From positions 38,006,001 to 38,070,000 of the forward strand of contig OX597826.1 in NCBI GenBank assembly GCA_951406725.2: a DNA stretch of 64,000 bases, read 5' to 3'. The position numbers and the translations under genes were made by a program. Under the pieces are notes generated by a model. It did no database searches, was not told the DNA's origin, and worked only from the letters and a program-made list of their open reading frames with translations. Each line of letters starts with the position of its first letter. Position 1 is the stretch's first letter. This DNA is from Octopus vulgaris. Its lineage: Eukaryota. Shown here piece by piece: positions 1,808 through 60,350 of the stretch.

Positions 1808-2280
1808 TCATCATCATTGTTCGACCGTGGTCGAGATAATGGAATTTACTATGTTACGCCAGACTTCATCATAGCATTACAGAGGTCCTGTTGCTGGATG
1901 CCTGTATCCCTGGAGATTACATCAGGGTAGGAGAGTGTGCGCCCTCTGGTATTGCGAGCAGTTGGCTTCCAGAGGAGAAGAGTAGAAATTACCTCGTTTT
2001 CAGCTCTACAACAATGTCCAGCAAACTGGACTCTTCTACCTTTCACAAGAGATGATGCAGGTGGTAGTTTCCCATATATTTGTACTTTGGTTGGATGACG
2101 CTTCCACGAGAGATTTTGAGCTCTCATAAGGAGGTGAGTGTAAGTTCCATCCAACCGCCTCTCAAGCTTCTTTGAAAACGTCCAGGTTTCTGAGCCATAT
2201 AGTAGAATTGGTTCGACTGTGGCTTTGAAGATTTTAAGCTTGAAATCTCTACTTAGATTTGATGACTAGATCTTGATGTA
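1808..2280 (-). mobile_element. 5'-truncated RTE-clade LINE 3' end
   Basis: Minus frame reads LKIFKATVEPILLYGSETW...LDGTYTHLL...FAGHCCR...LLLWKP, the typical RTE RT C-terminus; short (TGA)n tail at 1808-1819. Confidence 0.85.
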
Positions 2281-5518: not shown

Positions 5519-5864
5519 AGTCCTGATATTTCAATTTATTTACCTGAAATATTCAAAGACTGTTTTAATTTACGTTAAGCACCCACACCTTCCTTGTGCT
5601 TCTTCTAGCTATCGGTTTTGATGTAGACATTTCTGATGTTGATCAACAGTTTCATGGTTTAGCATCAATAGCTCAGATCCAATGGAATAGTCGTAATAGT
5701 ACCAAGAGCACGGATATAGTGACAGATCGTGGGCCGCGAAATATTTCTATGCGAACAGCTCTGAGAACCATTTTTTAATCTTTTTTGTATTTTATCAGGC
5801 TGTTATATTTCTTAATTGCGCATTCCTTGTGACAAGTATTGTCACAGAATTCATAGGTATACAC

Positions 5865-6087
5865 GAGCCGGCAGAATCGTTAGCACGCCGGGCGAAATGC
5901 GAAGCCGTATTTCGTCTGCCGTTACGTTCTGAGTTCAAATTCCGCCGAGGTCGACTTTGCCTTTCAGCCTTTCGGAGTCGATTAAATAAGTACCAGTTAC
6001 GCACCGAAGGTCGATATAATCGACTTCATCCGTTTGTCTGTCCTTGTTTGTCCTCTCTGTGTTTAGCCCCTTGTGGGTGGTAAAGAA
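5865..6087 (+). mobile_element. SINE family A with 12-bp target-site duplication
   Basis: Same body as 505-733; ATAGGTATACAC at 5853-5864 and 6088-6099. Confidence 0.88.
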
Positions 6088-6175
6088 ATAGGTATACACA
6101 CACACACGCACGCACGTACGCACACATGCACACACACAAACGCACACACATGCATACATACGCATACACACATGC

Positions 6176-6744: not shown

Positions 6745-7695
6745 TAGGTAAGTAGATAGATACATACATACATATATACATATATACATATATGCATATA
6801 TACATACATATATATATATATACATATACATATGCGTATACATATATGCATGACTAGACAGACAGACAGAGAAAGCATGTATATATGTACATGACAATAT
6901 ATACGTGGACGTTAATAGCAAGTTTAATATATATGTGTGTGTGCGTTTGTATTTCTATGCACCTGTACGTTTGTGATTTTATGTATATATGTGTATGTGT
7001 GTATGTGTGTGTATGTGCGTGTGCGTGTATGTGTGTATGTATGTATGCGCATAGTCATCAGCGTATAGGTCTATATGTATGTAATGTTTCCACATGGTTG
7101 TCTATTTGCCGATCTCTCTCGTTGTTTTCGTATCCATCTGTCTTTCCACTGCTCTTAATTTAAAATGAGAAAATAAGCTGGAACTTGCAGAAAAACAATG
7201 ATTAGTTTAGCTCTAATCAAATCTAACAAACCATTCTATAAAATCATATTTTCTCATTAATGGCATAAAATTCTTATCGTGTGAAACGATGGAAGAATAA
7301 ATGTTTGGCGAGGCAACATATAAAAATAAGAAAACACGAAATGGAGACAAACTAAATCAAGAAATAATTGGAGAATAATGGGGAGGGGATAGAAGAGCAA
7401 AACTGGGGATAAAGACAATATAAAGAGAGAGGAGGGAAAGAGGAAGACGAGCGCTAAAACAAAAGGGAAATGATTCGATACTTGAAGAAAACAGACAATC
7501 AAATCATTTGGTTTTATATCTAGTGAAATACTTTGTGTGTACCTGCATACGCACACACGCTCACACACACAAACACACACATACACACACACACATATAT
7601 ATATACATATACATATACACATTTATATATACATATGTATATCTATATATAGAGAGAGAAAGAGGAAAAGGAGGTAGTCAGAATTTCGGATAATT

Positions 7696-7740
7696 CTTTA
7701 TTAGCGCTTTCGTTCGTTTTTCGAACTCGTCAAGACAAAA
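7696..7740 (-). ncRNA. Minimal hammerhead-like motif, left arm
   Basis: Minus: ttttgt CTTGACGA gttcg aaaaa cgaac GAAA gcgc TA ataaag; variant core (extra U or C3U). Confidence 0.55.
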
Positions 7741-8380
7741 TCAAAATCAAAATGATAAAAACAGAACGCTTCGTTGTTTATTTATATGAATCTGATGCTT
7801 TTTTGCTTTGTTTAAAAGAGGAGAAAATTGTTTTTGTCCTTTATTTTTTTTGTTTTGTTTTGTTTGTTTGTTTTTTGTTTTTTGGAAAAAGGAGAGGGAG
7901 AAAGAAAAGCAAAGGTGGTGGAACTTATATAGAGAGAAGTTTCAAAACAATCAAGAAAGGGAAGAAAAATAATAATAAAGGATAGGGAAAGGAGAGTAGA
8001 TAGATAGAGAGAGAGAGAGAGAGAGATAAGCAAACAGAGAGAGGGGGAGTTCTTTACAATTTGATGTGGTCAATTCATTGAAATTTCATTACAAAGCATT
8101 TTGTCTTTCTCCTTTCTTTTTTTCTTTCCATTGTATACCTATCAGCACATTAGTAAATAAAAACATTTTCTCTCAAGGTCTGGTGACCTTTCAAAGATAT
8201 CAGTTTTAGGAAGTAGAATGGAAGAAATAAGAAAATTAACTATTTGAAAGAGGAACAGAGGAACTACATTTTTATTATAATTTTTTAATAGTAATGATGA
8301 TGGATGAAGAGAAAATATTTATATTACACTATTATTGTAGTTTCTGAATGTTAATAATATGATACTCATCTCTATAAATA

Positions 8381-8417
<37 letters not shown>

Positions 8418-9466
8418 CATTGGGATTTTGACAACTGTTGTTCTTATAGAACTTACATATACCTCGAAAGAATACTAGAACCATTCTACCACTGATAAGG
8501 AAAGATAACTAATGTAGCTACTTGGCGAAGTAATTTGTGAAAAAGATGTCTTTTGAATTCTCTTATCCATACAAGAAGCAGAAAAATAATCCTACAAAAC
8601 GATGAAAGATACTCAAAATAATATATTTAAGCATACCCTGCTTTGTTATATAATTTATATCCTACAGAGTGGCCTCCAGCTAAATATACAATATACATAC
8701 AAACTCATTTATATGTTTCATTAAATGTACATCGAAAATAATAAACAGTACCAAATTATTTTCTTATATTCTGACTTTATTTTCCTAATTTATGAATATT
8801 TTACTAATATTTGATGTTTGTTCATACAGAACATGGAATTACACAGAATATAGGACTTGACTCTACAAGTGTAAAGGAATATACATTTTCATGGGACTTT
8901 GAACTTTGAACTCTATTTTTTTTACTTTTCAGTGATGACCACACCCTCCAACTTTTATTTCTTTCATCCTACCTCCTAAAATTGACATTTTAGAAGGGTT
9001 ACCAGCTTTTTGTGAATAAATGTGTCTATTTACAAATATGTTGATACGTATAAAATGGAAAGAAAAAAGAAAAATGCTTTGTAATGAAATTTCAATGAAT
9101 TGACCACATCAAATTGAAAAGAAACCGCTCTTCCTCACTCCCTCTCTTTCTCCCTAGCTATCTATCTATTTATCTATCTACCTGTCTGTCTATCTATCTA
9201 TCGATCTATCTATCTGTCTGTCTATCTATCTGTCTATCTGTCTGTCTATCTATCTATCTATCTATATATCCTGTCCTTATTTTTTATTACAATTTTTTTT
9301 CCTCTTTCTTGATTGTCCTGAAACCTCTCTCTCCGTCTCTCTCTGTCAACTCCCCCACCTTGCTTTTCTTTCTCTCTTTCCTCTTTTTTCCCAAAAACAA
9401 AGCAAAAAGTACCCGATTCATATAAATGAGCAAAGAAACGTTCTGTTTTTATCATTTTGATTTTGA

Positions 9467-9511
9467 TTTTGTCTTGACGAGTTCTAAAAACGAACGAAAG
9501 CGCTACTAAAA
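9467..9511 (+). ncRNA. Minimal hammerhead-like motif, right arm
   Basis: ttttgt CTTGACGA gttc taaaaac gaac GAAA gcgc TA ctaaaa; stem I weaker than in the left copy. Confidence 0.5.
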
Positions 9512-9605
9512 TATTATTCAAAATTCTGACATCCTCCTTTTTCTCTATGTACAATATCTGTAGATCACTTCAAACACCCTATAATTACACACACACACAC
9601 ACACG

Positions 9606-9728
<123 letters not shown>

Positions 9729-10055
9729 ATAGATACACATTCATACATATATACTTACAATAAACATATACATGCATTATATACACACAGATACATTACA
9801 TTGTATACACACTTTATATTATATACCTACATGCTTACACACAGATTGCATGTACACATACACACACACACATGTAAATACATAGATATATATGTGTGTG
9901 TATGTATGTATATACCTACAAAAATATGTAAAAGAACTATATATTTCAATCTATCTCAAAAATTAGATGATAGAATAGACAGAGTTAAAATTGGTTGAGG
10001 TGCGGTCGTAATTGCGTACCATTGTATCTTCTCAAACAGTTACATATCTTACATG

Positions 10056-10091
<36 letters not shown>

Positions 10092-10488
10092 CATACACAT
10101 ACGTATATATATGTATATATGTATATATATATACATTCATACATACATACGCATATATTATACTATCATCTCTTCTCCATTTTTATCAAAATTCTTCAGT
10201 TTTATGGGATTTCTTTCCATAAAATCACAACACACCATATGCAAATATATACATACTATATTGTATATTGATATATATGTGTGTATGTGTGTGTATACAC
10301 GTACATTTATACCTATATATATATATATATATATACCAATTAAGGACTGAACACGAAAAGTGGACAGTCAACATGCTAGATATAGACGTCAAATCGTCAT
10401 TCACCACAAAAGATTATGTTCTCAGATCAAACTCAACACAAAACCATAGCAATAAACAAGTGAAAAATATACGAAATAAAATAATTAC

Positions 10489-10553
10489 CCATGTACTAAC
10501 TTAGTTTCAGCTGTTATTTTCCGCAAGGAAAACTGCAGCCATCATCAGCATGG
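10489..10553 (-). ncRNA. Type I hammerhead ribozyme, copy 1
   Basis: Exact reverse complement of 11089-11153. Confidence 0.85.
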
Positions 10554-11088
10554 TCCGTTATAAATGTAATTTGCTGGACTAGATGCAAACACGATACCGA
10601 AATATCGCGTGCATGGAGTTCAGCCTATTACATTTGAATATATCTTTCAAATGCCTTTACTTTGGCGCGTTGAAACCCGAGGAAACTAGCCTGCAGCTAA
10701 TAATTAGCAGCAGTTAATTTATCGGTTAGAGAACATATTTATTTATATAAAATTAATTAAGGGTAGAAATTGATATTTATCAATTAAGACCAGTGGTCTA
10801 GCATATTAAAAAAGAATCCGAAGATTAAAATATTTATATATACCAATTAAGGACTGAACACGAAAAGTGGACAGTCAACATGCTAGATATAGACGTCAAA
10901 TCGTCATTCACCACAAAAGATTATGTTCTCAGATCAAACTCAAAGCTAATTATTAGCTGCAGGCTAGTTTCCTGCGCCAAAGTAAAGGCATTTGAAAGAT
11001 ATATTCAAATGTAATAGGCTGAACTCCAAGCACGCGATATTTCGGTATCGTGTTTGCATCTAGTCCAGCAAATTACATTTATAACGGA

Positions 11089-11153
11089 CCATGCTGATGA
11101 TGGCTGCAGTTTTCCTTGCGGAAAATAACAGCTGAAACTAAGTTAGTACATGG
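11089..11153 (+). ncRNA. Type I hammerhead ribozyme, copy 2
   Basis: ccatg CTGATGA t ggctg (ca gttttcc ttgc ggaaaat aa) cagct GAAA cta agt tag TA catgg: stems I-III pair, core intact, GUA cleavage triplet at 11146-11148. Confidence 0.85.
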
Positions 11154-11594
11154 GTAATTATTTTATTTCGTATATTTTTCACTTGTTTATTGCTATGGTT
11201 TTGTGTTGAGTTTGATCTGAGAACATAATCTTTTGTGGTGAATGACGATTTGACGTCTATATCTAGCATGTTGACTGTCCACTTTTCGTGTTCAGTCCTT
11301 AATTGGTATATATAAATATTTTAATCTTCGGATTCTTTTTTAATATGCTAGACCACTGGTCTTAATTGATAAATATCAATTTCTACCCTTAATTAATTTT
11401 ATATAAATAAATATGTTCTCTAACCGATAAATTAACTGCTGCTAATTATTAGCTGCAGGCTAGTTTCTCGGGTTTCAACGCGCCAAAGTAAAGGCATTTG
11501 AAAGATATATTCAAATGTAATAGGCTGAACTCCATGCACGCGATATTTCGGTATCGTGTTTGCATCTAGTCCAGCAAATTACATTTATAACGGA

Positions 11595-11659
11595 CCATGC
11601 TGATGATGGCTGCAGTTTTCCTTGCGGAAAATAACAGCTGAAACTAAGTTAGTACATGG
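11595..11659 (+). ncRNA. Type I hammerhead ribozyme, copy 3
   Basis: Identical to copy 2, 506 bp downstream. Confidence 0.85.
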
Positions 11660-11897
11660 GTAATTATTTTATTTCGTATATTTTTCACTTGTTTATTGCT
11701 ATGGTTTTGTGTTGAGTTTGATCTGAGAACATAATCTTTTGTGGTGAATGACGATTTGACGTCTATATCTAGCATGTTGACTGTCCACTTTTCGTGTTCA
11801 GTCCTTAATTGGTATATATAAATATTTTAATCTTCGGATTCTTTTTTAATATGCTAGACCACTGGTCTTAATTGATAAATATCAATTTCTACCCTTA

Positions 11898-11957
<60 letters not shown>

Positions 11958-14260: not shown

Positions 14261-14455
14261 CTTGTTTCAGTCGTTTGACTGCGGCCATGCTGGGACACAG
14301 CCTTTAGTCGAGCAAATCAACCCCAGGACTTATTCTTAGTAAGCCAAGTACTTATTCTATCTGTCTCTTTTGCCGAAACGCTAAGTTACGGGAACGTAAA
14401 TACTCCAGCATCGGTTGTCAAGCGATGTTCGGGGGACAAACACAGACACACAAAC

Positions 14456-14508
<53 letters not shown>

Positions 14509-14670
14509 ACAGGCTTCTTTCAATTTCCGTCTACAAAATTCCCTCACAAGGCTTTGGTCGGCAGGTGGCTACAGTAGAAGACACTTGCCCAAGGTACCAC
14601 GCAGTGGGACTGAACCCAGAACAATGTGGTTAGGAAGCAAGCTACTTACCACACACCCACTCCTGCGCCT
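14261..14670 (-). mobile_element. Full-length SINE family B (tRNA head, CORE-like domain)
   Basis: Revcomp of 59958-60350; CCTTGGGCAAGTGTCTT CORE-like motif; internal TA/CA tract. Confidence 0.88.
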
Positions 14671-15507
14671 ATATATATGTTTATGTATTTGCTTTGAAAG
14701 ATTCCTGACCATTCCTAAATATAAATATATATCCATACATTTACACACACACACACAATCACGTATTTACCTCTACATACCGCTCCCCACAAATACTCAG
14801 CCACGTGCCACAGATTACACGCATTCGGTCACATACACACACACACACTATTCACCTATATGCAAACTTACATATACATGCCCACACACACACACACATA
14901 TACACACGCACGCACACACACACGCACACATACACACACATGCACACACACACACACTAACTACATAGATTCGTTTCAATCATTTCCTCCCCTTTTTTGT
15001 TGTTGTTTTCCTTTTTTATTTACGTTCTGGTCTTTGTTGATTTTCTCATTATCATCAGCAGCATCAGCATCGTATTCAACAACACCGCCACCATCATTTC
15101 CATCGCCGCCACCGTCCTACTCATCCCTCGTCACCACACTCTACCACCCTCATCATCAACACACCCCGTCACCATCACCACGTCTCCACTACTAACATAA
15201 CCAATTACCCCCCACCGCTACCATCGTCTCCACCATCCCTACCAACACCTCCACTACCACCAATCACTACAACACTGTCCACAACCGACAACAGCCGCCA
15301 CCACTACCATCACCATTGCGACACCACTGCAACTACCACCACCACTACCATCTCCAAGACCACCACTACTGTCACAGCCACCGAAACTGCCAATAATATC
15401 GATGTAGTTATTGCTATATTCTTTAATATCAAAATCAATTTTAAAAATACCTCTCTTTCTCTCCCTCTCACTCACTATTTGTCTCTCTCACTCTCTCTCC
15501 CACTCTC

Positions 15508-17987: not shown

Positions 17988-18033
17988 CTCTACAGACAGT
18001 TGTTTCAATATATCGTACCTCATCAGTCCAAAG
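17988..18033 (-). ncRNA. Old hammerhead motif with intact core and decayed stems
   Basis: Minus: ctttgga CTGATGA ggta cgata tatt GAAA caactg TC tgtagag; the stems rely on G.U pairs and one mismatch. Confidence 0.5.
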
Positions 18034-33915: not shown

Positions 33916-34825
33916 CTAGCAGTATCGCCCGGCGTTGCTCGGGTTTGTAAGGGAAATAACTATATAAGCATTTTTAGTGAGTTATAGCAAAAGAATAGCA
34001 AAAAAATGCATTAAAAATGGAATAAAAAATGATGGTAATTTTTTTTTTTTAATCGTTGACTCATCGTAGACATTTTTAGAGAGTTACTTCCCTTATATAA
34101 TAGCGAAAAAATGCATTAAAATGGAAAAAATGATGGTAATTTTTTTTTAAATCGTAGACTCATCGTAGACGCGCGCTAATACCCAGGAGGGCTCGATATG
34201 AATCACGACTATAAGATACCCGGTTTTGGTTAAACTGCACCGCAAAATGTGGGAGTAGTTAGGAATCTAAATCGTAGGAGACAGACACGCAACTTCACTT
34301 TTATATATAAAGATTTGTGCAACAACTAAAACATTCGGTTGTGCAAATTGTTTGCACAGGAAACCTGCCCTGTGTGGCGGTTTTTGCCGTTTTTGTGGAT
34401 CTGTTTCAGCTTTTTTAGCAATTTCTGTTTTGGCGACTTCAAGCCATGAAGTCGTTGTTCTAAAAGAACGCTGGTCTCCTTGACAACGCTTTACGACGTT
34501 GATTTCCCTACCCTGCCTTCTCCACAGCTTCACGAGGGAGGGAAGATGGGGGAGAAGCAACACAGATGCAGGTGTGAGCATGGACGCCAACTCCGCCGCC
34601 ATCGACACACGAAAAAATTGGAAGAAATGGAAAAAAATAATGTTAAATTATTTTTAAAATCGTAGACTCATCGTAGACGCGCGCTAATACCCAGACGGGC
34701 TCGATATAAATCACGACTATAAGATACCCGAATTTGGTTAAACTGCACCACAAAATGTGGGAGTAGTTAGGAATCTAAATCGTAGGAGACAGACACTCAC
34801 ACAACTTCACTTTTATACATATAGA
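33916..34825 (-). mobile_element. Composite non-autonomous Helitron with two 5' termini
   Basis: Minus 3' end: hairpin CCCGAGCAACGCCGGG then CTAG (33916-33919); 5'-TC termini at 34313 and 34825; a 5' block of about 190 bp is duplicated. Confidence 0.8.
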
Positions 34826-34828
34826 TAT

Positions 34829-34960
34829 GTGTCCCTTTCTGTAGAAGAGCATAGGCTCGAAACGTAAAAGACATTTTCTATTCCTGAGCGTTATACTAAT
34901 ACATCTGTTTGTTTTGAACACCACCTGTCTTCGTCTTTTGTTTTTGAAGTAAACTCTCCC
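34829..34960 (+). mobile_element. Short PLE-type terminus with minimal HHR-like motif (34835-34870)
   Basis: cttt CTGTAGA a gagc atag gctc GAAA cg TA aaag (A6U variant); ends in (TA)n; second copy at 37361-37466 (-). Confidence 0.65.
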
Positions 34961-35001
<41 letters not shown>

Positions 35002-35214: not shown

Positions 35215-35337
<123 letters not shown>

Positions 35338-35355
35338 TGCGACCTTTTTATAGAT

Positions 35356-35400
35356 GTACCTGAAGAGGCCTTGAACGACGGGTCGAAACATGCATTGTAC
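35356..35400 (+). ncRNA. HHR-like motif in a ~90-bp insert within (TA)n
   Basis: gtac CTGAAGA ggcc ... ggtc GAAA catgca tt gtac; stem III imperfect; AATAAA follows. Confidence 0.55.
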
Positions 35401-35425
35401 CTTATAAAGTCTAATAAACATTCCA

Positions 35426-35526
<101 letters not shown>

Positions 35527-36125: not shown

Positions 36126-37360
36126 AGCGACGACGACGACAACTACAACAACATCAACAACAATGAGAATCAAGGTAATGGTTTTACCACAGAGAGGAGT
36201 CCCGTAATTATTTTAGAGCGTGTAGATGGCGGCTCTATCGTGGTTTCATTGTAAATTATACATATTTTAGCTTCATTCTCTGCTAAACACATTGATTTAA
36301 ACACCTCTTCTTTTTTTCACTCATAAATTTGGCCAATATACCATTAACACAACAAACCAGTAATGGTGAAAACCTTTCTGTAAAATGACCTCTACACTTT
36401 AGTTCCTCGTTCCTCGATTTACCAATATCAGTTTTGAATTAACTCATCATAAAATATTGTTGCCACCTTTATACTGCCATAAGTGCACATAATAGCTTTT
36501 CCCTCTATTTACCTTTCATATTCAATGTCGTTTTTACTGAAATATTCAATAAGCTTACTTCACACATCCATTTTCAGACCTTTAGGCTATAGTTTCATGC
36601 TAGGTAGAAGGCTTTGTTGAAATATCAGTCAAAATTGATTCTTTATCTTTTAAGCAGCATCTCACGTTAGCTCCATTTTCCCAAACAGTCTGTTTTATAC
36701 CTCATTACGACCATTCATAGCTGGTCAAATAGCAGAGTGGTTGAAGCGTCGAACAAACACTATGGTTAATTGTTCTGAATCTTGGTGTTTTGAGTTCAAA
36801 TAACGCCATGCTCAACTTTACTTTTCACCCATCCAGAGCTGATAAATAAACTCCAAGTAAAGTTCTTCGTTCGCTTCTTCTTCGTCTTTTCCTTTGTCTT
36901 TCCTGCCATCTGTCTACCTATCTATCTATTGTATGAATGACGAAGCCACCTTGACTATGATTCTATGAACCATAAAAATTAATACAGAGAGTTGCTTATT
37001 TGCAAAAAAAAATAAAAGAAATATAACATGTGACTTCATTGACCGAGGTTACCGTGGTCTTTTCCGTAGGCTTTTCTTTCCACGGGTAAACCTCACCTGT
37101 CCTCCCCTTTACACTTCATATTGACATTTCTGTGATAACGATCCCTATTGATCAATTTTTTCCTCTCCCCCTTTTTTTAACCCCCCCCCCTTTTTTGTCC
37201 TCTTTCTCTCCTTTTACGATCCCTTTTGATCGAACACACCCCCTTTTTTTTACCTTCAAAAGAAAAGCTCTACCTTGTAATTTGTTCTATCTGTGTGCAG
37301 CCATGTGTGGCTAATAAAGAAACATATCTATTTATATACATTTATACTGATATATATATA

Positions 37361-37466
37361 GGGAGAGTTTACGAAAAAAAACAAAAGACAAAGACAGGTG
37401 GTGTACAAAACAAACAGATGTATTAGTATAACTCTGAGGAATAGAAAAAGTATTTTACGTTTCGAG
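37361..37466 (-). mobile_element. Truncated copy of the 34829-34960 family in (TA)n
   Basis: Revcomp match; breaks inside the HHR at CTCGAAACGTA. Confidence 0.8.
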
Positions 37467-40299: not shown

Positions 40300-40599
40300 T
40301 AATTATGAATAGTATAGATGTGGTGATGGCTGTTTAGCTGTTTAGCCATTAGTCAGCGTTTTCACCATGTTGATCTACATTCAAGGGCTTTCCAACCATA
40401 ACCATCCTGCAGTACGATTTGATTTGTGGAAGATTTAGCATTTATTTTTCACATATTTACCCAGAGACAGTGTTCACCATCTTTTGATATTAAAATTTTA
40501 CACGGATACTGCCATCATCAAGGAAAAGTGAATATTTTGCGGCGATCTTCGGTAATGAGATTATAAATTTTATTGTGTGAGAGAGACTAACAATTATTA

Positions 40600-40995
40600 T
40601 ACTCTTCTACTCTTCTACTTGTTTCAGTCATTTGACTGCGGCCATGCTGGAGCACCACCTTTAGTCGAGCAAATCGACCCCGGGACTTATTCTTTGTAAG
40701 CCCAGTGCTTATTCTATCGGTCTCTTTTGCCGAACCGCTAAGTGACGGGGACGTAAACACACCAGCATCGGTGGTCAAGCAATGCTAGGGGGGCCAAACA
40801 CAAACACACAAACACGCACATACATATATATATACATATATACGACAGGCTTCTTTCAGTTTCCGTCTACCAAATCCACTCACAAGGCATTGGTCGGCCC
40901 GGGACTATAGTAGAAGACACTTGCCCAAGGTGCCACGCAGTGGGACTGAACCCGGAACCATGTGGTTGGTTAGCAAGCTACTTACCACACAGCCA
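40600..40995 (-). mobile_element. SINE family B, young copy
   Basis: Very close reverse complement of 59958-60350. Confidence 0.9.
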
Positions 40996-49558: not shown

Positions 49559-49584
49559 TAATACATACATATATATATATATAT

Positions 49585-49800
49585 AAAGTTAATCCAAACA
49601 AGAAAGCACAAAAAAACACAACAACGCGAGGACGTGGAACAAATATAGTATTATTGGACGCTCAGGAAAGAAGGAAAGAAGGAGGGTTTAACGTTTCGAG
49701 CGGAGCTCTTCGTCGGAAACATAGGAGAAGGAAAGATCCAGAGAAGGGAAGACAGAGGGAAAAAATCGCCAACGGTACACACGAGGTCGCATTTTGAAAG
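49585..49800 (-). mobile_element. PLE-type terminus with minimal HHR (49686-49720)
   Basis: Minus: gttt CCGACGA a gagc tcc gctc GAAA cg TT aaac; related to the 34835 motif; inside (TA)n. Confidence 0.7.
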
Positions 49801-49812
49801 ATATATATATAT

Positions 49813-50031
49813 GACAACAAAAGAATGAATGAGACCTCGATGTTATGTAAAATAGATGAATTTATCTATGAATATAATATGTGACAATTAGTTAGTTGTC
49901 ATAATAAAACTTAGAGTTTCGGATGCTAGGGCTGAAGTCTGCTCCAGCATCTTATCATAAGATGTGCGAGCATATTTCAGCCCCGGTATCCGAAACTCTG
50001 AGTTTTATTATGATAACCTCCTAATTGTCAC

Positions 50032-50036
<5 letters not shown>
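49813..50036. mobile_element. Head-to-head PLE-type terminus palindrome (49876-50036) joined within the HHR core
   Basis: Arms of about 80 bp, centre 49956; arms carry gatg...atcc GAAA ctc t (g/a)ag TT; arms only about 80% identical. Confidence 0.7.
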
Positions 50037-50065
<29 letters not shown>

Positions 50066-50633: not shown

Positions 50634-51054
50634 TATTTCTTTATTGCCCACAAGGGGCTAAACATAGAGAGCACAAATAAGGACAGACAAAGGGATTAAG
50701 TCGATTACATCGACCCCAGTGCGTAACTGGTACTTATTTAATCGACCCCGAAAGGATGTAATGCAAAGTCGACCTTGGCGGAATTTGAACTGAGAACGTA
50801 GCAGCAGACGAAATACCTGTTTCTCTATTACCTACCCACAAGGGGCTAAACATAGAGGGGTCAAACAAGGACAGACAAACGGATTAAGTCGATTACATCG
50901 ACCCCAGTGCTTAACTGGTACTTAATTTATCGACCCCGAAAGGATGAAAGGTAAAGTCGACCACGGCGTAATTTGAACTCAGAACGTAACGGCAGACGAA
51001 ATATCGGTAATCCTTTCGCCCGGCGTCCTAATGATTCTGCCAGCTCACCGCCCT
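50634..51054 (-). mobile_element. Dimeric SINE family A insertion with 17-bp TSD
   Basis: Full copy about 50819-51054 plus headless copy about 50634-50818; GTTTAAAACTAGATATT at 50617-50633 and 51055-51071. Confidence 0.88.
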
Positions 51055-51446: not shown

Positions 51447-52365
51447 GGCAATGGATATTTTAGTTGTATCATGACGCTAAAACAAACCATCATCATATTT
51501 GTAGAAACATCGGAGCATTAGAAAGATTTCATTGCAGTATTTACCTTGGCTCCCAGTTCTCTGGGTTCAATTCCTGTCGAAGTAGATTTCATCTTTCGTT
51601 GGTTTTGTTTTGTTTTTTTTTTGTTGTTTTTTTTATCTTGGTCTATTAAATAAGATATCAGTCAAACATCAGCTACGTTTATGTTCCCCCTTCTGTTTCT
51701 CTCCCTTTCTCCCTTTCTCTTTCTCTCTTCCTGTGACAGAAAATAAAATACCAGAACACACTGAATCTATCCGACGCTCTACCGATCCCGTTAATTCACC
51801 ACCCTACAAGTTCACTATGACAACATAAACATACCAAGCAGCACAAGCAAATTTGTAAATTAGCAATTTTTCTCTAATTCATATTTAATACTTGATGTTG
51901 TTGATGTTGTTGTTTAACTGCAGATTAAGTCCTATTGAACAGTCCTATAATCAAAAGCATTCCAGCCATGACCATCTCACCTTTTTAGTGGTTTGTAATG
52001 TGCCAGAGAACGTATCTAAAATTTATTAAGCAACAGATTGTGTTACGACGATTGGAACTGATGCGTCCACACATTGTATCCAAGAACAGAAAATGGGTGA
52101 ACAGCTGCATATTCGTTTCGACTTTTGTTCGAATCGTTGCCAGCAACAGGGTACCTTCCTGAACTATCCACGGACACATTGCGTATAAATCATTATTGTT
52201 AACACGTTTGCATTTTAATGCTCGATCTAGCTGCCTGAAAAAGTATTAAATATGCAAACTGGTCTCTTACATATGTAAATTGGTCTATTTTTGTCTTTAA
52301 CAGTTAAAAGGAGTGAGTTTATAAATATTGTCTGTGGATAGTTGAGGACGGTAAACAGTTGCTGA

Positions 52366-52584
52366 ATCGTTAACAGGCCGGGCAAATTGTGTAGCCGTAT
52401 TTCGTCTGCCTCTATGTTCTGAGTTCAAATTCCGCCGAGGTCGACTTTGCCTTTCATCCTTTCGGGGTCGATTAAATAAGTACCAGTTACGCTCTGGGGT
52501 CGATGTAATCGACTTAATCCGTTTGTCTGTCCTTGTTTGTCCCCTCTGTGTTTAGCCCCTTGTGGGTAGTAAAGAAATAGGTAC
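52366..52584 (+). mobile_element. SINE family A with 11-bp TSD
   Basis: ACAGTTGCTGA at 52355-52365 and 52585-52595. Confidence 0.88.
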
Positions 52585-58741: not shown

Positions 58742-59957
58742 CATATATACATATATATGCATATTCACATATATATATATGCATATATATACAGTCACGT
58801 ATTCACGTATTTACACATATGCATTTATATTCGTTATACTGTGTGTGTATGTGTGTGTGTGTGTGTGTGCACCCGTCACTCATACACACTAACACATATG
58901 CATATCCTACGCTATTACCTGTTGGGGCCCATCTTTGCTTCTGTTTCTTGACTTTTAATTTCCTTTCGCTTTTTCTCTTCAAGAATTTTTCATTTTCTTC
59001 ATCTTTGCCTTTTAATATTAACTTTAGAAATTAAAAATATTTTAGATTTTCCACGTCGTATTTACATTATCTTTTTTATTTTTATTTATTTCCTTTTTTT
59101 GTTGTTCTTTTTATCATACCTTTATTTTTATTATATGTTTATATGTTTATAACACATTTTCTTTATTCCTTCCCCCCACCCCACACTTCATATTTGGCCA
59201 TCTCCCATTATTCTCAAACATGAAATGCTGTTCATAGTATTTTTATGACATTTTGTAATGATCAGCTTGTCTAATCCAATTTCTAGCAGAAAGAATGCGA
59301 TTATTATTAAAATTATATCTACCCGTTACTGTAGTAACCGTGCGGTTTTGTTGGCATAGTAAACTGCCATTTTGGGTTATTATTGTACGTTTCGAAGTCC
59401 AATAGCCATGATACCCACCACCTTTCATTAAGTACTTTCATAACCAACACTGAATCAGCGTTTATTAGAATCCTTCTGTTATAGTTTCAAGTCTAGCTAC
59501 AGGAAATTCGTTTCAGCCTGAATGGAGCTAAGACCAATAAAATAGATACCAGTAATATACTGCCATTGCTTCTACCAGCGACTGGGGTTTTCCTACAAAA
59601 TCGAGTTTTATCACAAGTCAATAAAAAAATGATTTTTTTTTCGGGTAATGAAATTTTTGTTGCTATTGTTATTGTTTTGTTCCTTAATCCTAGGCTAAAA
59701 TGGACCGGCAATGAAAATATTCCAACCATGACCATTTGGTCATCTTTACATATATAGTGTATCAAAGACTCATTATCCAAGGTACTTTCTAGTTTCTAAG
59801 ATGGTTGATGTGATTTCAACTTTACTACTATTTCTAGCAATGCAAATGACCACATAGAGGCGTCTTTATTGTCTTACAGCTATAGACGGTTGTACTTACT
59901 TAGTCAACTTCTCTGTGACTTTCACGGATGTGTTTCTTTGAGAAATTATTGTAACGT

Positions 59958-60350
59958 AGGCGCTGGAGTGGCTGTGTGGTAAGTAGCTTGCTAACCAACC
60001 ACATGGTCCCGGGTTCAGTCCCACTGCGTGGCATCTTGGGCAAGTGTCTTCTGCTATAGTCCCGGGCCGACCAATGCCTTGTGAGTGGATTTGGTAGACG
60101 GAAACTGAAAGAAGCCTGTCGTATATATGTATATATATATATGTGTGTATGTGTGTGTGTTTGTCCCCCTAGCATTGCTTGACAACTGATACTGGTGTGT
60201 TTACGTCCCCGTCACTTAGCGGTTCGGCAAAAGAGACCGATAGAATAAGTACTGGGCTTACAAAGAATAAGTCCCGGGGTCGATTTGCTCGACTAAAGGC
60301 GGTGCTCCAGCATGGCCGCAGTCAAATGACTGAAACAAGTAAAAGAGTAA
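59958..60350 (+). mobile_element. Full-length SINE family B (tRNA head, CORE-like domain)
   Basis: TGGCTGTGTGG A box, GGGTTCAGTCCC B box, CTTGGGCAAGTGTCTT, tail GGCGGTGCTCCAGCATGGCCGCAGTC. Confidence 0.9.

Follow-up and report, generated by a model that had tools for sequence, protein, structure and literature searches.

The window, a 64-kb stretch of Octopus vulgaris DNA (contig OX597826.1, positions 38,006,001 to 38,070,000), contains a pair of inverted arms that are separated by a spacer and bounded by microsatellites. The features of the locus are the following:

7552..7660, no strand: left flank, a (CA)n/(TA)n microsatellite
7661..8230, minus strand: left arm by sequence alignment, likely a second, tail-less copy of the element's 3' end, inverted and truncated on its 5' side
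7702..7733, minus strand: left hammerhead-like motif, with a U3/G8 core (or C3 plus one extra U), a 4-bp helix II, GAAA, GCGC and CUA
7702..7768, minus strand: left 67-bp block, a U-rich/Inr-like stretch plus the hammerhead-like motif
7750..7786, minus strand: left TATA/Inr-like pair (TATAAAT at 7786-7780, TCATTT at 7755-7750), putative in function
8057..8102, minus strand: left 46-bp block, an exact match to the right copy
8231..8954, plus strand: spacer, itself multi-copy family sequence and likely the main copy's upstream portion
8955..9546, plus strand: right arm by sequence alignment, likely the 3' end of the main copy (pLTR-like part)
9071..9116, plus strand: right 46-bp block, an exact match to the left copy
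9421..9457, plus strand: right TATA/Inr-like pair (TATAAAT at 9421-9427, TCATTT at 9452-9457), putative in function
9439..9505, plus strand: right 67-bp block, counterpart of the left one
9474..9505, plus strand: right hammerhead-like motif, with the first helix I pair broken in both registers
9547..9579, plus strand: one-sided "tail," an extension of ~33 bp on the right arm only, which family contigs have
9580..9735, no strand: right flank, a TATA, (AC)n and (TAGA)n microsatellite

The sequence-only reading had described an inverted duplication with two well-preserved blocks, and alignment recovered the arms (7661-8230 and 8955-9546) and both blocks. The 46-bp blocks have no mismatches between the arms; the 67-bp blocks consist of 46 and 20 exact bases around a single mismatch, which falls on the opening base of loop II (the stem II/loop II edge of the earlier description). 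The two motif copies face outward, away from the spacer, as described. The spacer is present, but by its boundaries it measures 724 bp and not the 710 bp given before. An arm identity of ~75 to 80% had been reported; we obtained 83 to 89.5% without gaps (inner segment, 146/166 or 88%; middle, 86/104 or 83%; outer, 136/152 or 89.5%), and gapped BLAST pieces of the arm pair are 88.9, 76, and 75% identical. The element also reaches beyond position 9547, to ~9579.

Translation of the spacer in all six frames matched no Pfam family and gave no reverse transcriptase (RT) or GIY-YIG remnant. A coding exon was considered because short open frames span the outer block in both arms, but it is improbable in a region that is a repeat. 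A search of the whole window against Rfam returned, among the best 150 of 403 matches, nearly only microsatellite-driven miRNA families, none of them at the gathering score. We rejected a microRNA hairpin reading of the blocks, as six folds around the 67-bp block and four around the 46-bp block gave no long hairpin. A scan for sigma-70 promoters, a bacterial signal irrelevant in an animal, found 10 against 11.0 expected and was likewise dismissed as chance. The 46-bp block contains words that we take to resemble Sox, POU, TCF, and Runx motifs.

The arms and the spacer belong to a multi-copy family. At least 20 of 24 listed public runs contain part of the stretch; five runs with a share of 0.05 to 0.06 were given no weight as evidence. 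We aligned contigs from four runs of four organisms to positions 7655-9150 at 80% likeness. In the four runs, 131, 1,126, 753, and 1,646 contigs matched the arms and spacer, most of them 80 to 95% alike; only 11, 101, 54, and 107, respectively, were at least 99% alike. The spacer is no less well covered than the arms, and depth peaks at the outer end in every run; because the aligned stretch ended at 9150, the left arm also collects contigs that belong to the outer part of the right one, and summed contig depth is not copy number. Among the best 32 of 4,053 pieces, the mean difference from the window is 13.0% over 25 spacer pieces (range, 9 to 18%), a mean that excludes one identical 199-bp piece, probably the orthologue; six block-spanning pieces are treated apart below. 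Thirteen of the best 40 of 457 family differences fall within the arms. At 11 of these 13, the family letter is the letter of the opposite arm, and the other 2 lie on alignment gaps. This match among the listed differences suggests that the arms began as one sequence and then drifted. The locus is one old copy of a dispersed repeat. The sequence-only reading had treated the blocks as a single-locus module and had named membership in a recent high-copy repeat as what would speak against it; the blocks do lie within a high-copy repeat, although an old one, with ~13% difference between copies.

Among the BLAST matches listed, no further family copies lie inside the 64-kb window, and exact-pattern scans of metagenome contigs gave no matches in either of two scans. 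We also considered transcription on the basis of the run with 131 contigs, which was only guessed to be RNA, and set it aside: 11 of the 131 contigs are at least 99% alike, the 8 listed pieces differ by ~10 to 15%, and the run is uninformative on this locus. None of the papers listed in a literature search pointed to a prior description of the repeat family.

The order of sequences within the family differs from that at the locus. In all four runs, contig depth in the bin 8205-8254 is about half that in 8155-8204, and family cover ends at ~8230 to 8235, the inner end of the left arm; a private indel might also halt cover at 8231. Five of the best 15 of 181 joints, all five from one run, connect 8227-8237 with 8903-8949 on opposite strands, and none of these 15 crosses the left junction on the same strand. 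These joints indicate that the family order runs from spacer to arm, with the left arm apparently an inverted copy made only once; other family copies read continuously from the spacer into the right arm. Among the joints listed and by the drop in depth, the inverted 5'-truncated copy thus has an insertion-specific junction. The outer ends differ as well. The extension at 9547-9579, within the 30- to 40-bp range, occurs only on the right arm, and family loose ends at 7662/7666 resemble it in all four runs, although a left copy may have decayed. Left positions 7646-7660 faintly resemble the right tail, which might instead be an element terminus, its left counterpart having decayed into microsatellite. 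No target site duplication (TSD) is recognizable at the insertion, and a direct pLTR tandem is absent from this copy.

The earlier reading had presented the 67-bp block as a hammerhead; only 32 of its 67 bases (9474-9505; 7733-7702) are hammerhead-like. Both copies of this motif have a helix II of GUUC/GAAC closed by G10.1-C11.1, followed by GAAA, a palindromic GCGC, and a CUA triplet. The Watson-Crick 3-8 pair (C3-G8 or U3-A8) is missing, the core having either U3 with G8 or C3 plus one inserted U. The first pair of helix I is broken in three of the four combinations of copy and register, and only the left copy, read with the extra U, can form helix I, with six weak pairs, two of them G-U. 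The non-canonical core and weak stem I noted before are borne out, with no Watson-Crick 3-8 pair and helix I out of register. The proposal that the block folds as a minimal hammerhead stands for the helix II, GAAA, GCGC, and CUA parts but fails for the fold: the two copies are equalled or surpassed in folding by 188 and 103 of 200 shuffles, and the best Rfam match, HH9, scored 13.7 bits (E, 9.4) against a gathering score of 52. The motif is not a member of the canonical type-I hammerheads. A U3-G8 wobble would be expected to cripple hammerhead cleavage. The part of PMC6155905 that was available contains nothing on its effect.

How often such motifs arise by chance depends on the descriptor. 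A tight one (Watson-Crick helix II, G10.1, palindromic helix III), which was fitted post hoc, had no match in one 20-Mb simulation and a single match in another. With relaxed descriptors, the chance expectation is 0.10 to 0.27 per 128 kb, and it is 0.82 per 128 kb for one-deviation motifs without helix I. Family loose ends at 7719, judged by eye, suggest relatives with an altered position 7 and loop II in which helix II is kept. From its context, at the position expected of a hammerhead in a pLTR, the motif is likely the relic of a retroelement ribozyme, a decayed or variant hammerhead of a Penelope-like element (PLE), and to this extent the hammerhead lead of the sequence-only reading proved useful. 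Upstream of the motif in both arms sits the TATA/Inr-like pair, with an equal spacing of 33 nt from the first T of TATAAAT to the A of TCATTT.

Together, these features make it probable that the locus is a decayed, 5'-truncated PLE that inserted along with a second copy of its 3' end in the opposite orientation. The assignment to PLEs is suggested by anatomy, no RT or endonuclease having been found, and the lack of an RT or GIY-YIG remnant in the spacer is expected for a short 3' fragment. The main copy would be 8231-9579 on the plus strand. At integration, a truncated inverted copy (7661-8230) would have been joined head to head to its 5' end, so that both arms would have been identical at the start, and each arm would afterwards have drifted independently. 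The TATA/Inr-like pair would correspond to the pLTR promoter and the hammerhead-like motif to its RNA-processing ribozyme, which may have cut tandem transcripts of the parent element weakly and as a dimer. The motif would then have been carried as ordinary element cargo and not kept by the host. Several results count against the PLE reading. Besides the missing RT and GIY-YIG remnant, the motif has neither a Watson-Crick 3-8 pair nor a helix I in register, a kind of motif that arises by chance at the 0.82 per 128 kb given above, and the element has no detectable homology to the other hammerhead elements of the window (P, 0.07 to 0.45 in four of four comparisons).

The anatomy agrees with published accounts, as far as their accessible parts go. 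Those of Craig et al. (10.1101/2021.04.23.441226) describe PLE copies in which an inverted 5'-truncated copy creates flanking inverted repeats, a tail of 30 to 40 bp usually at one end only, hammerheads in canonical PLE pLTRs, and a bias of Naiads and Chlamys toward microsatellites. The available portion of Arkhipova et al. (PMC3846280) reports a pLTR with TATA plus Inr, a 31-bp tail, units arranged head to head, and truncated copies that lack a TSD, and the excerpts of PMC8969392 and PMC6765202 are consistent with the described PLE anatomy. Like the EN+ PLEs with an inverted pLTR (Penelope/Poseidon, Neptune, Nematis, and Hydra), the locus has head-to-head inverted repeats, a one-sided 30- to 40-bp tail, a TATA plus Inr-like pair, a hammerhead-like motif near the 3' end, microsatellite flanks, and cover that is highest at the 3' end. 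Unlike them, this copy is without an ORF remnant, a direct pLTR tandem, or a recognizable TSD, and its parent element was not found.

The motif itself resembles the minimal type-I hammerheads of metazoan PLEs. In the consulted part of Cervera and De la Pena (PMC4209133), these occur as opposite-strand pairs 100 to 700 bp apart, include a U3-A8 variant, and have low activity even as dimers. Shared features are G10.1-C11.1, the 4-bp helix II, GAAA, the palindromic helix III, the NUH triplet, and the arrangement in opposite-strand pairs; here, however, U3 is combined with G8 (or an extra core U is present) and not with A8 as in the reported variant, there is no bulge between positions 9 and 10.1, and helix I is not in register. 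The animal non-LTR retrozymes, as presented in the accessible section of 10.64898/2026.07.22.740005, are likewise non-coding and hammerhead-bearing and are proposed pLTR derivatives; theirs form tandem arrays, whereas at the present locus two inverted units enclose a spacer of 724 bp that is itself family sequence.

Long inverted arms around a non-coding interior would also fit a non-autonomous Tc1/mariner-type DNA transposon with TIRs of ~600 bp, in which the blocks would be transposase-binding sites and the likeness to a hammerhead a matter of chance. Long-TIR MITEs are known, and the right end, read inward, is a TA followed by a heptamer one base off CAGGGTG, with which some Rhodnius mariner and MITE TIRs start (available parts of PMC4678618 and PMC3814204); long arms, a non-coding interior, and a TA-flanked end near CAGGGTG are all shared with Rpmar49 (PMC4678618, same part). 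Element ends are over-represented among family contigs, and loose ends at 7698 and 7733 reveal other subfamilies that have only the core at ~7698-7733 in common. For such an element, however, both inner TIR junctions should recur among copies, and only the right one does so among the joints listed, with cover dropping at the left. The left terminus is absent or decayed, with TA at the right end only, so that, unlike the Rpmar49-type MITEs in the accessible text of PMC4678618, the locus has one terminus, a left junction absent from other copies, and a hammerhead-like motif. The spacer has no trace of a transposase (Pfam, six of six frames), the CCCTATA end is not diagnostic, being found as well on the element with a hammerhead at 34839-34964 and on that element's relative at 37363, and selection on binding sites would stop after insertion. 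We consider a DNA transposon unlikely. The private left junction, which is compatible with any one-off inversion, would also be accounted for by an unclassified non-coding repeat (SINE-like or of another type) in which a single local inverted duplication took place. In that case the hammerhead and TATA likenesses would be chance, in line with the failure of the motif in Rfam and in folding z-scores and with the 0.1 to 0.8 chance matches per 128 kb for relaxed descriptors. It would leave the one-sided ~33-bp tail unexplained, though, and the rarity of the compact motif in the 20-Mb simulations (with the post hoc descriptor) and the by-eye variants at 7719 that keep helix II also count against it; we regard it as quite unlikely.

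The preservation of two blocks within otherwise drifted arms had been attributed to purifying selection on a domesticated ribozyme or regulatory module. The patchiness is real under a uniform-drift model: two exact runs of at least 46 bp arose in 15 of 100,000 column shuffles of the inner and outer segments (P, ~1.5 × 10^-4) and in 6 of 100,000 with all three segments. Under patchy-rate simulations, P ranged from 0.004 to 0.50 over 12 settings. Single runs of at least 46 bp are present in 3 of the window's 16 control repeat pairs, and two such runs in only 1, a pair that is 96% identical. None of the best 40 of 457 family differences lies inside either block. This last result favors host selection, under which the two blocks would be maintained as paired enhancers or divergent promoter/ribozyme units, perhaps recruited from this repeat, as do the rarity of double runs and the TATA/Inr-like spacing preserved in both arms. 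The six block-spanning pieces, however, differ by 12.9% across the 67-bp block against 13.0% in the spacer, with 91 differences in 706 bases (expected, 91.9 at the spacer rate, 67 if ancestral-like, and 42.5 if invariant); these pieces are non-independent, share the window's own changes, and come in five of six cases from one run, which makes the comparison weak. A ribozyme under selection would be expected to retain its helix I as well, yet helix I falls outside the block and is not alike in the two arms. Moreover, the sequence is multi-copy where a low copy number would be expected, and no long non-repetitive ORF adjoins either end of the element (small exons may still exist). We find domestication very improbable, and purifying selection on such a module is unsupported. 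A combined account, in which an old PLE insertion was co-opted, selection holds the promoter-plus-hammerhead and 46-bp blocks, and two divergent transcripts are cut by a dimeric hammerhead with the eight-base CUUGACGA core, appears more improbable still. For the clean blocks taken by themselves, later arm-to-arm gene conversion, which the sequence-only reading had named as an alternative, has about an even chance of being the cause, chance with uneven mutation rates is a possible though less probable one, and selection is improbable. The rate in the block-spanning pieces speaks weakly for conversion or for letters of the parent subfamily. Conversion predicts shared derived letters in the blocks, and their absence from the 40 listed differences counts against it; even so, we rate conversion between the arms, or chance, above domestication.

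As a decayed PLE, the locus would be ordinary and matter little, as inverted pLTRs with hammerheads are already known and octopus repeat surveys (accessible parts of PMC13282606 and PMC8967140) list PLEs. Annotation can be misled by insertions of this type, which look like long-TIR DNA transposons or "conserved divergent promoters." Among the papers listed in our literature search, none was on octopus hammerheads by its title or abstract, a weak basis for calling them undescribed. The hammerhead-like motifs of the window, with their differing one-base core changes, could be used to test the core tolerance of dimeric PLE hammerheads.

Several other hammerhead elements lie in the window. At 10323-11920, 750 bp away, a young PLE- or retrozyme-like insertion with the same layout sits between (TA)n runs; it consists of one inverted and two tandem units that are 97 to 99.7% identical, and an assembly artefact is possible. 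It carries canonical-core type-I hammerheads at 10548 (minus strand), 11094 (plus), and 11600 (plus), each with a 5-bp helix I and a long helix II that is preceded by a bulged base. The one at 11600 folds better than 200 of 200 shuffles, and these three would be better candidates for cleavage than the motifs at 7702 and 9474. A short repeat is present in two copies, 91% alike, at 34827-34964 (plus) and 37356-37466 (minus), the second cut within the motif; the minimal hammerhead at 34839 has A6 changed to U and lies ~95 nt ahead of a (TA)n end. Another short element, at 49584-49800 (minus), ends in (TA)n and is followed by an 81% palindrome at 49852-50060; its minimal hammerhead, at 49716, has C in place of U4 and a helix I of 4 bp. 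The motifs at 34839 and 49716 are both compact, with a single core change and four pairs in helix I, a combination expected 0.05 times per 128 kb. An island of ~95 bp in (TA)n runs, at 35335-35428 (plus), is centered on a canonical-core hammerhead-like motif at 35360, and a descriptor match at 18026 (minus) is probably chance.

Among the other repeats, a 138-amino-acid open frame at 1849-2265 (minus) presumably resembles the end of a LINE reverse transcriptase. Two SINE-like families, each with copies 88 to 96% alike, were used as the controls above; one has copies at 502-733, 5864-6095, 50634-51052, and 52361-52583, and the second has copies at 14261-14671, 40598-40995, and 59957-60349. A direct repeat pair, 92 to 94% alike, lies at 34149-34319 and 34657-34831.
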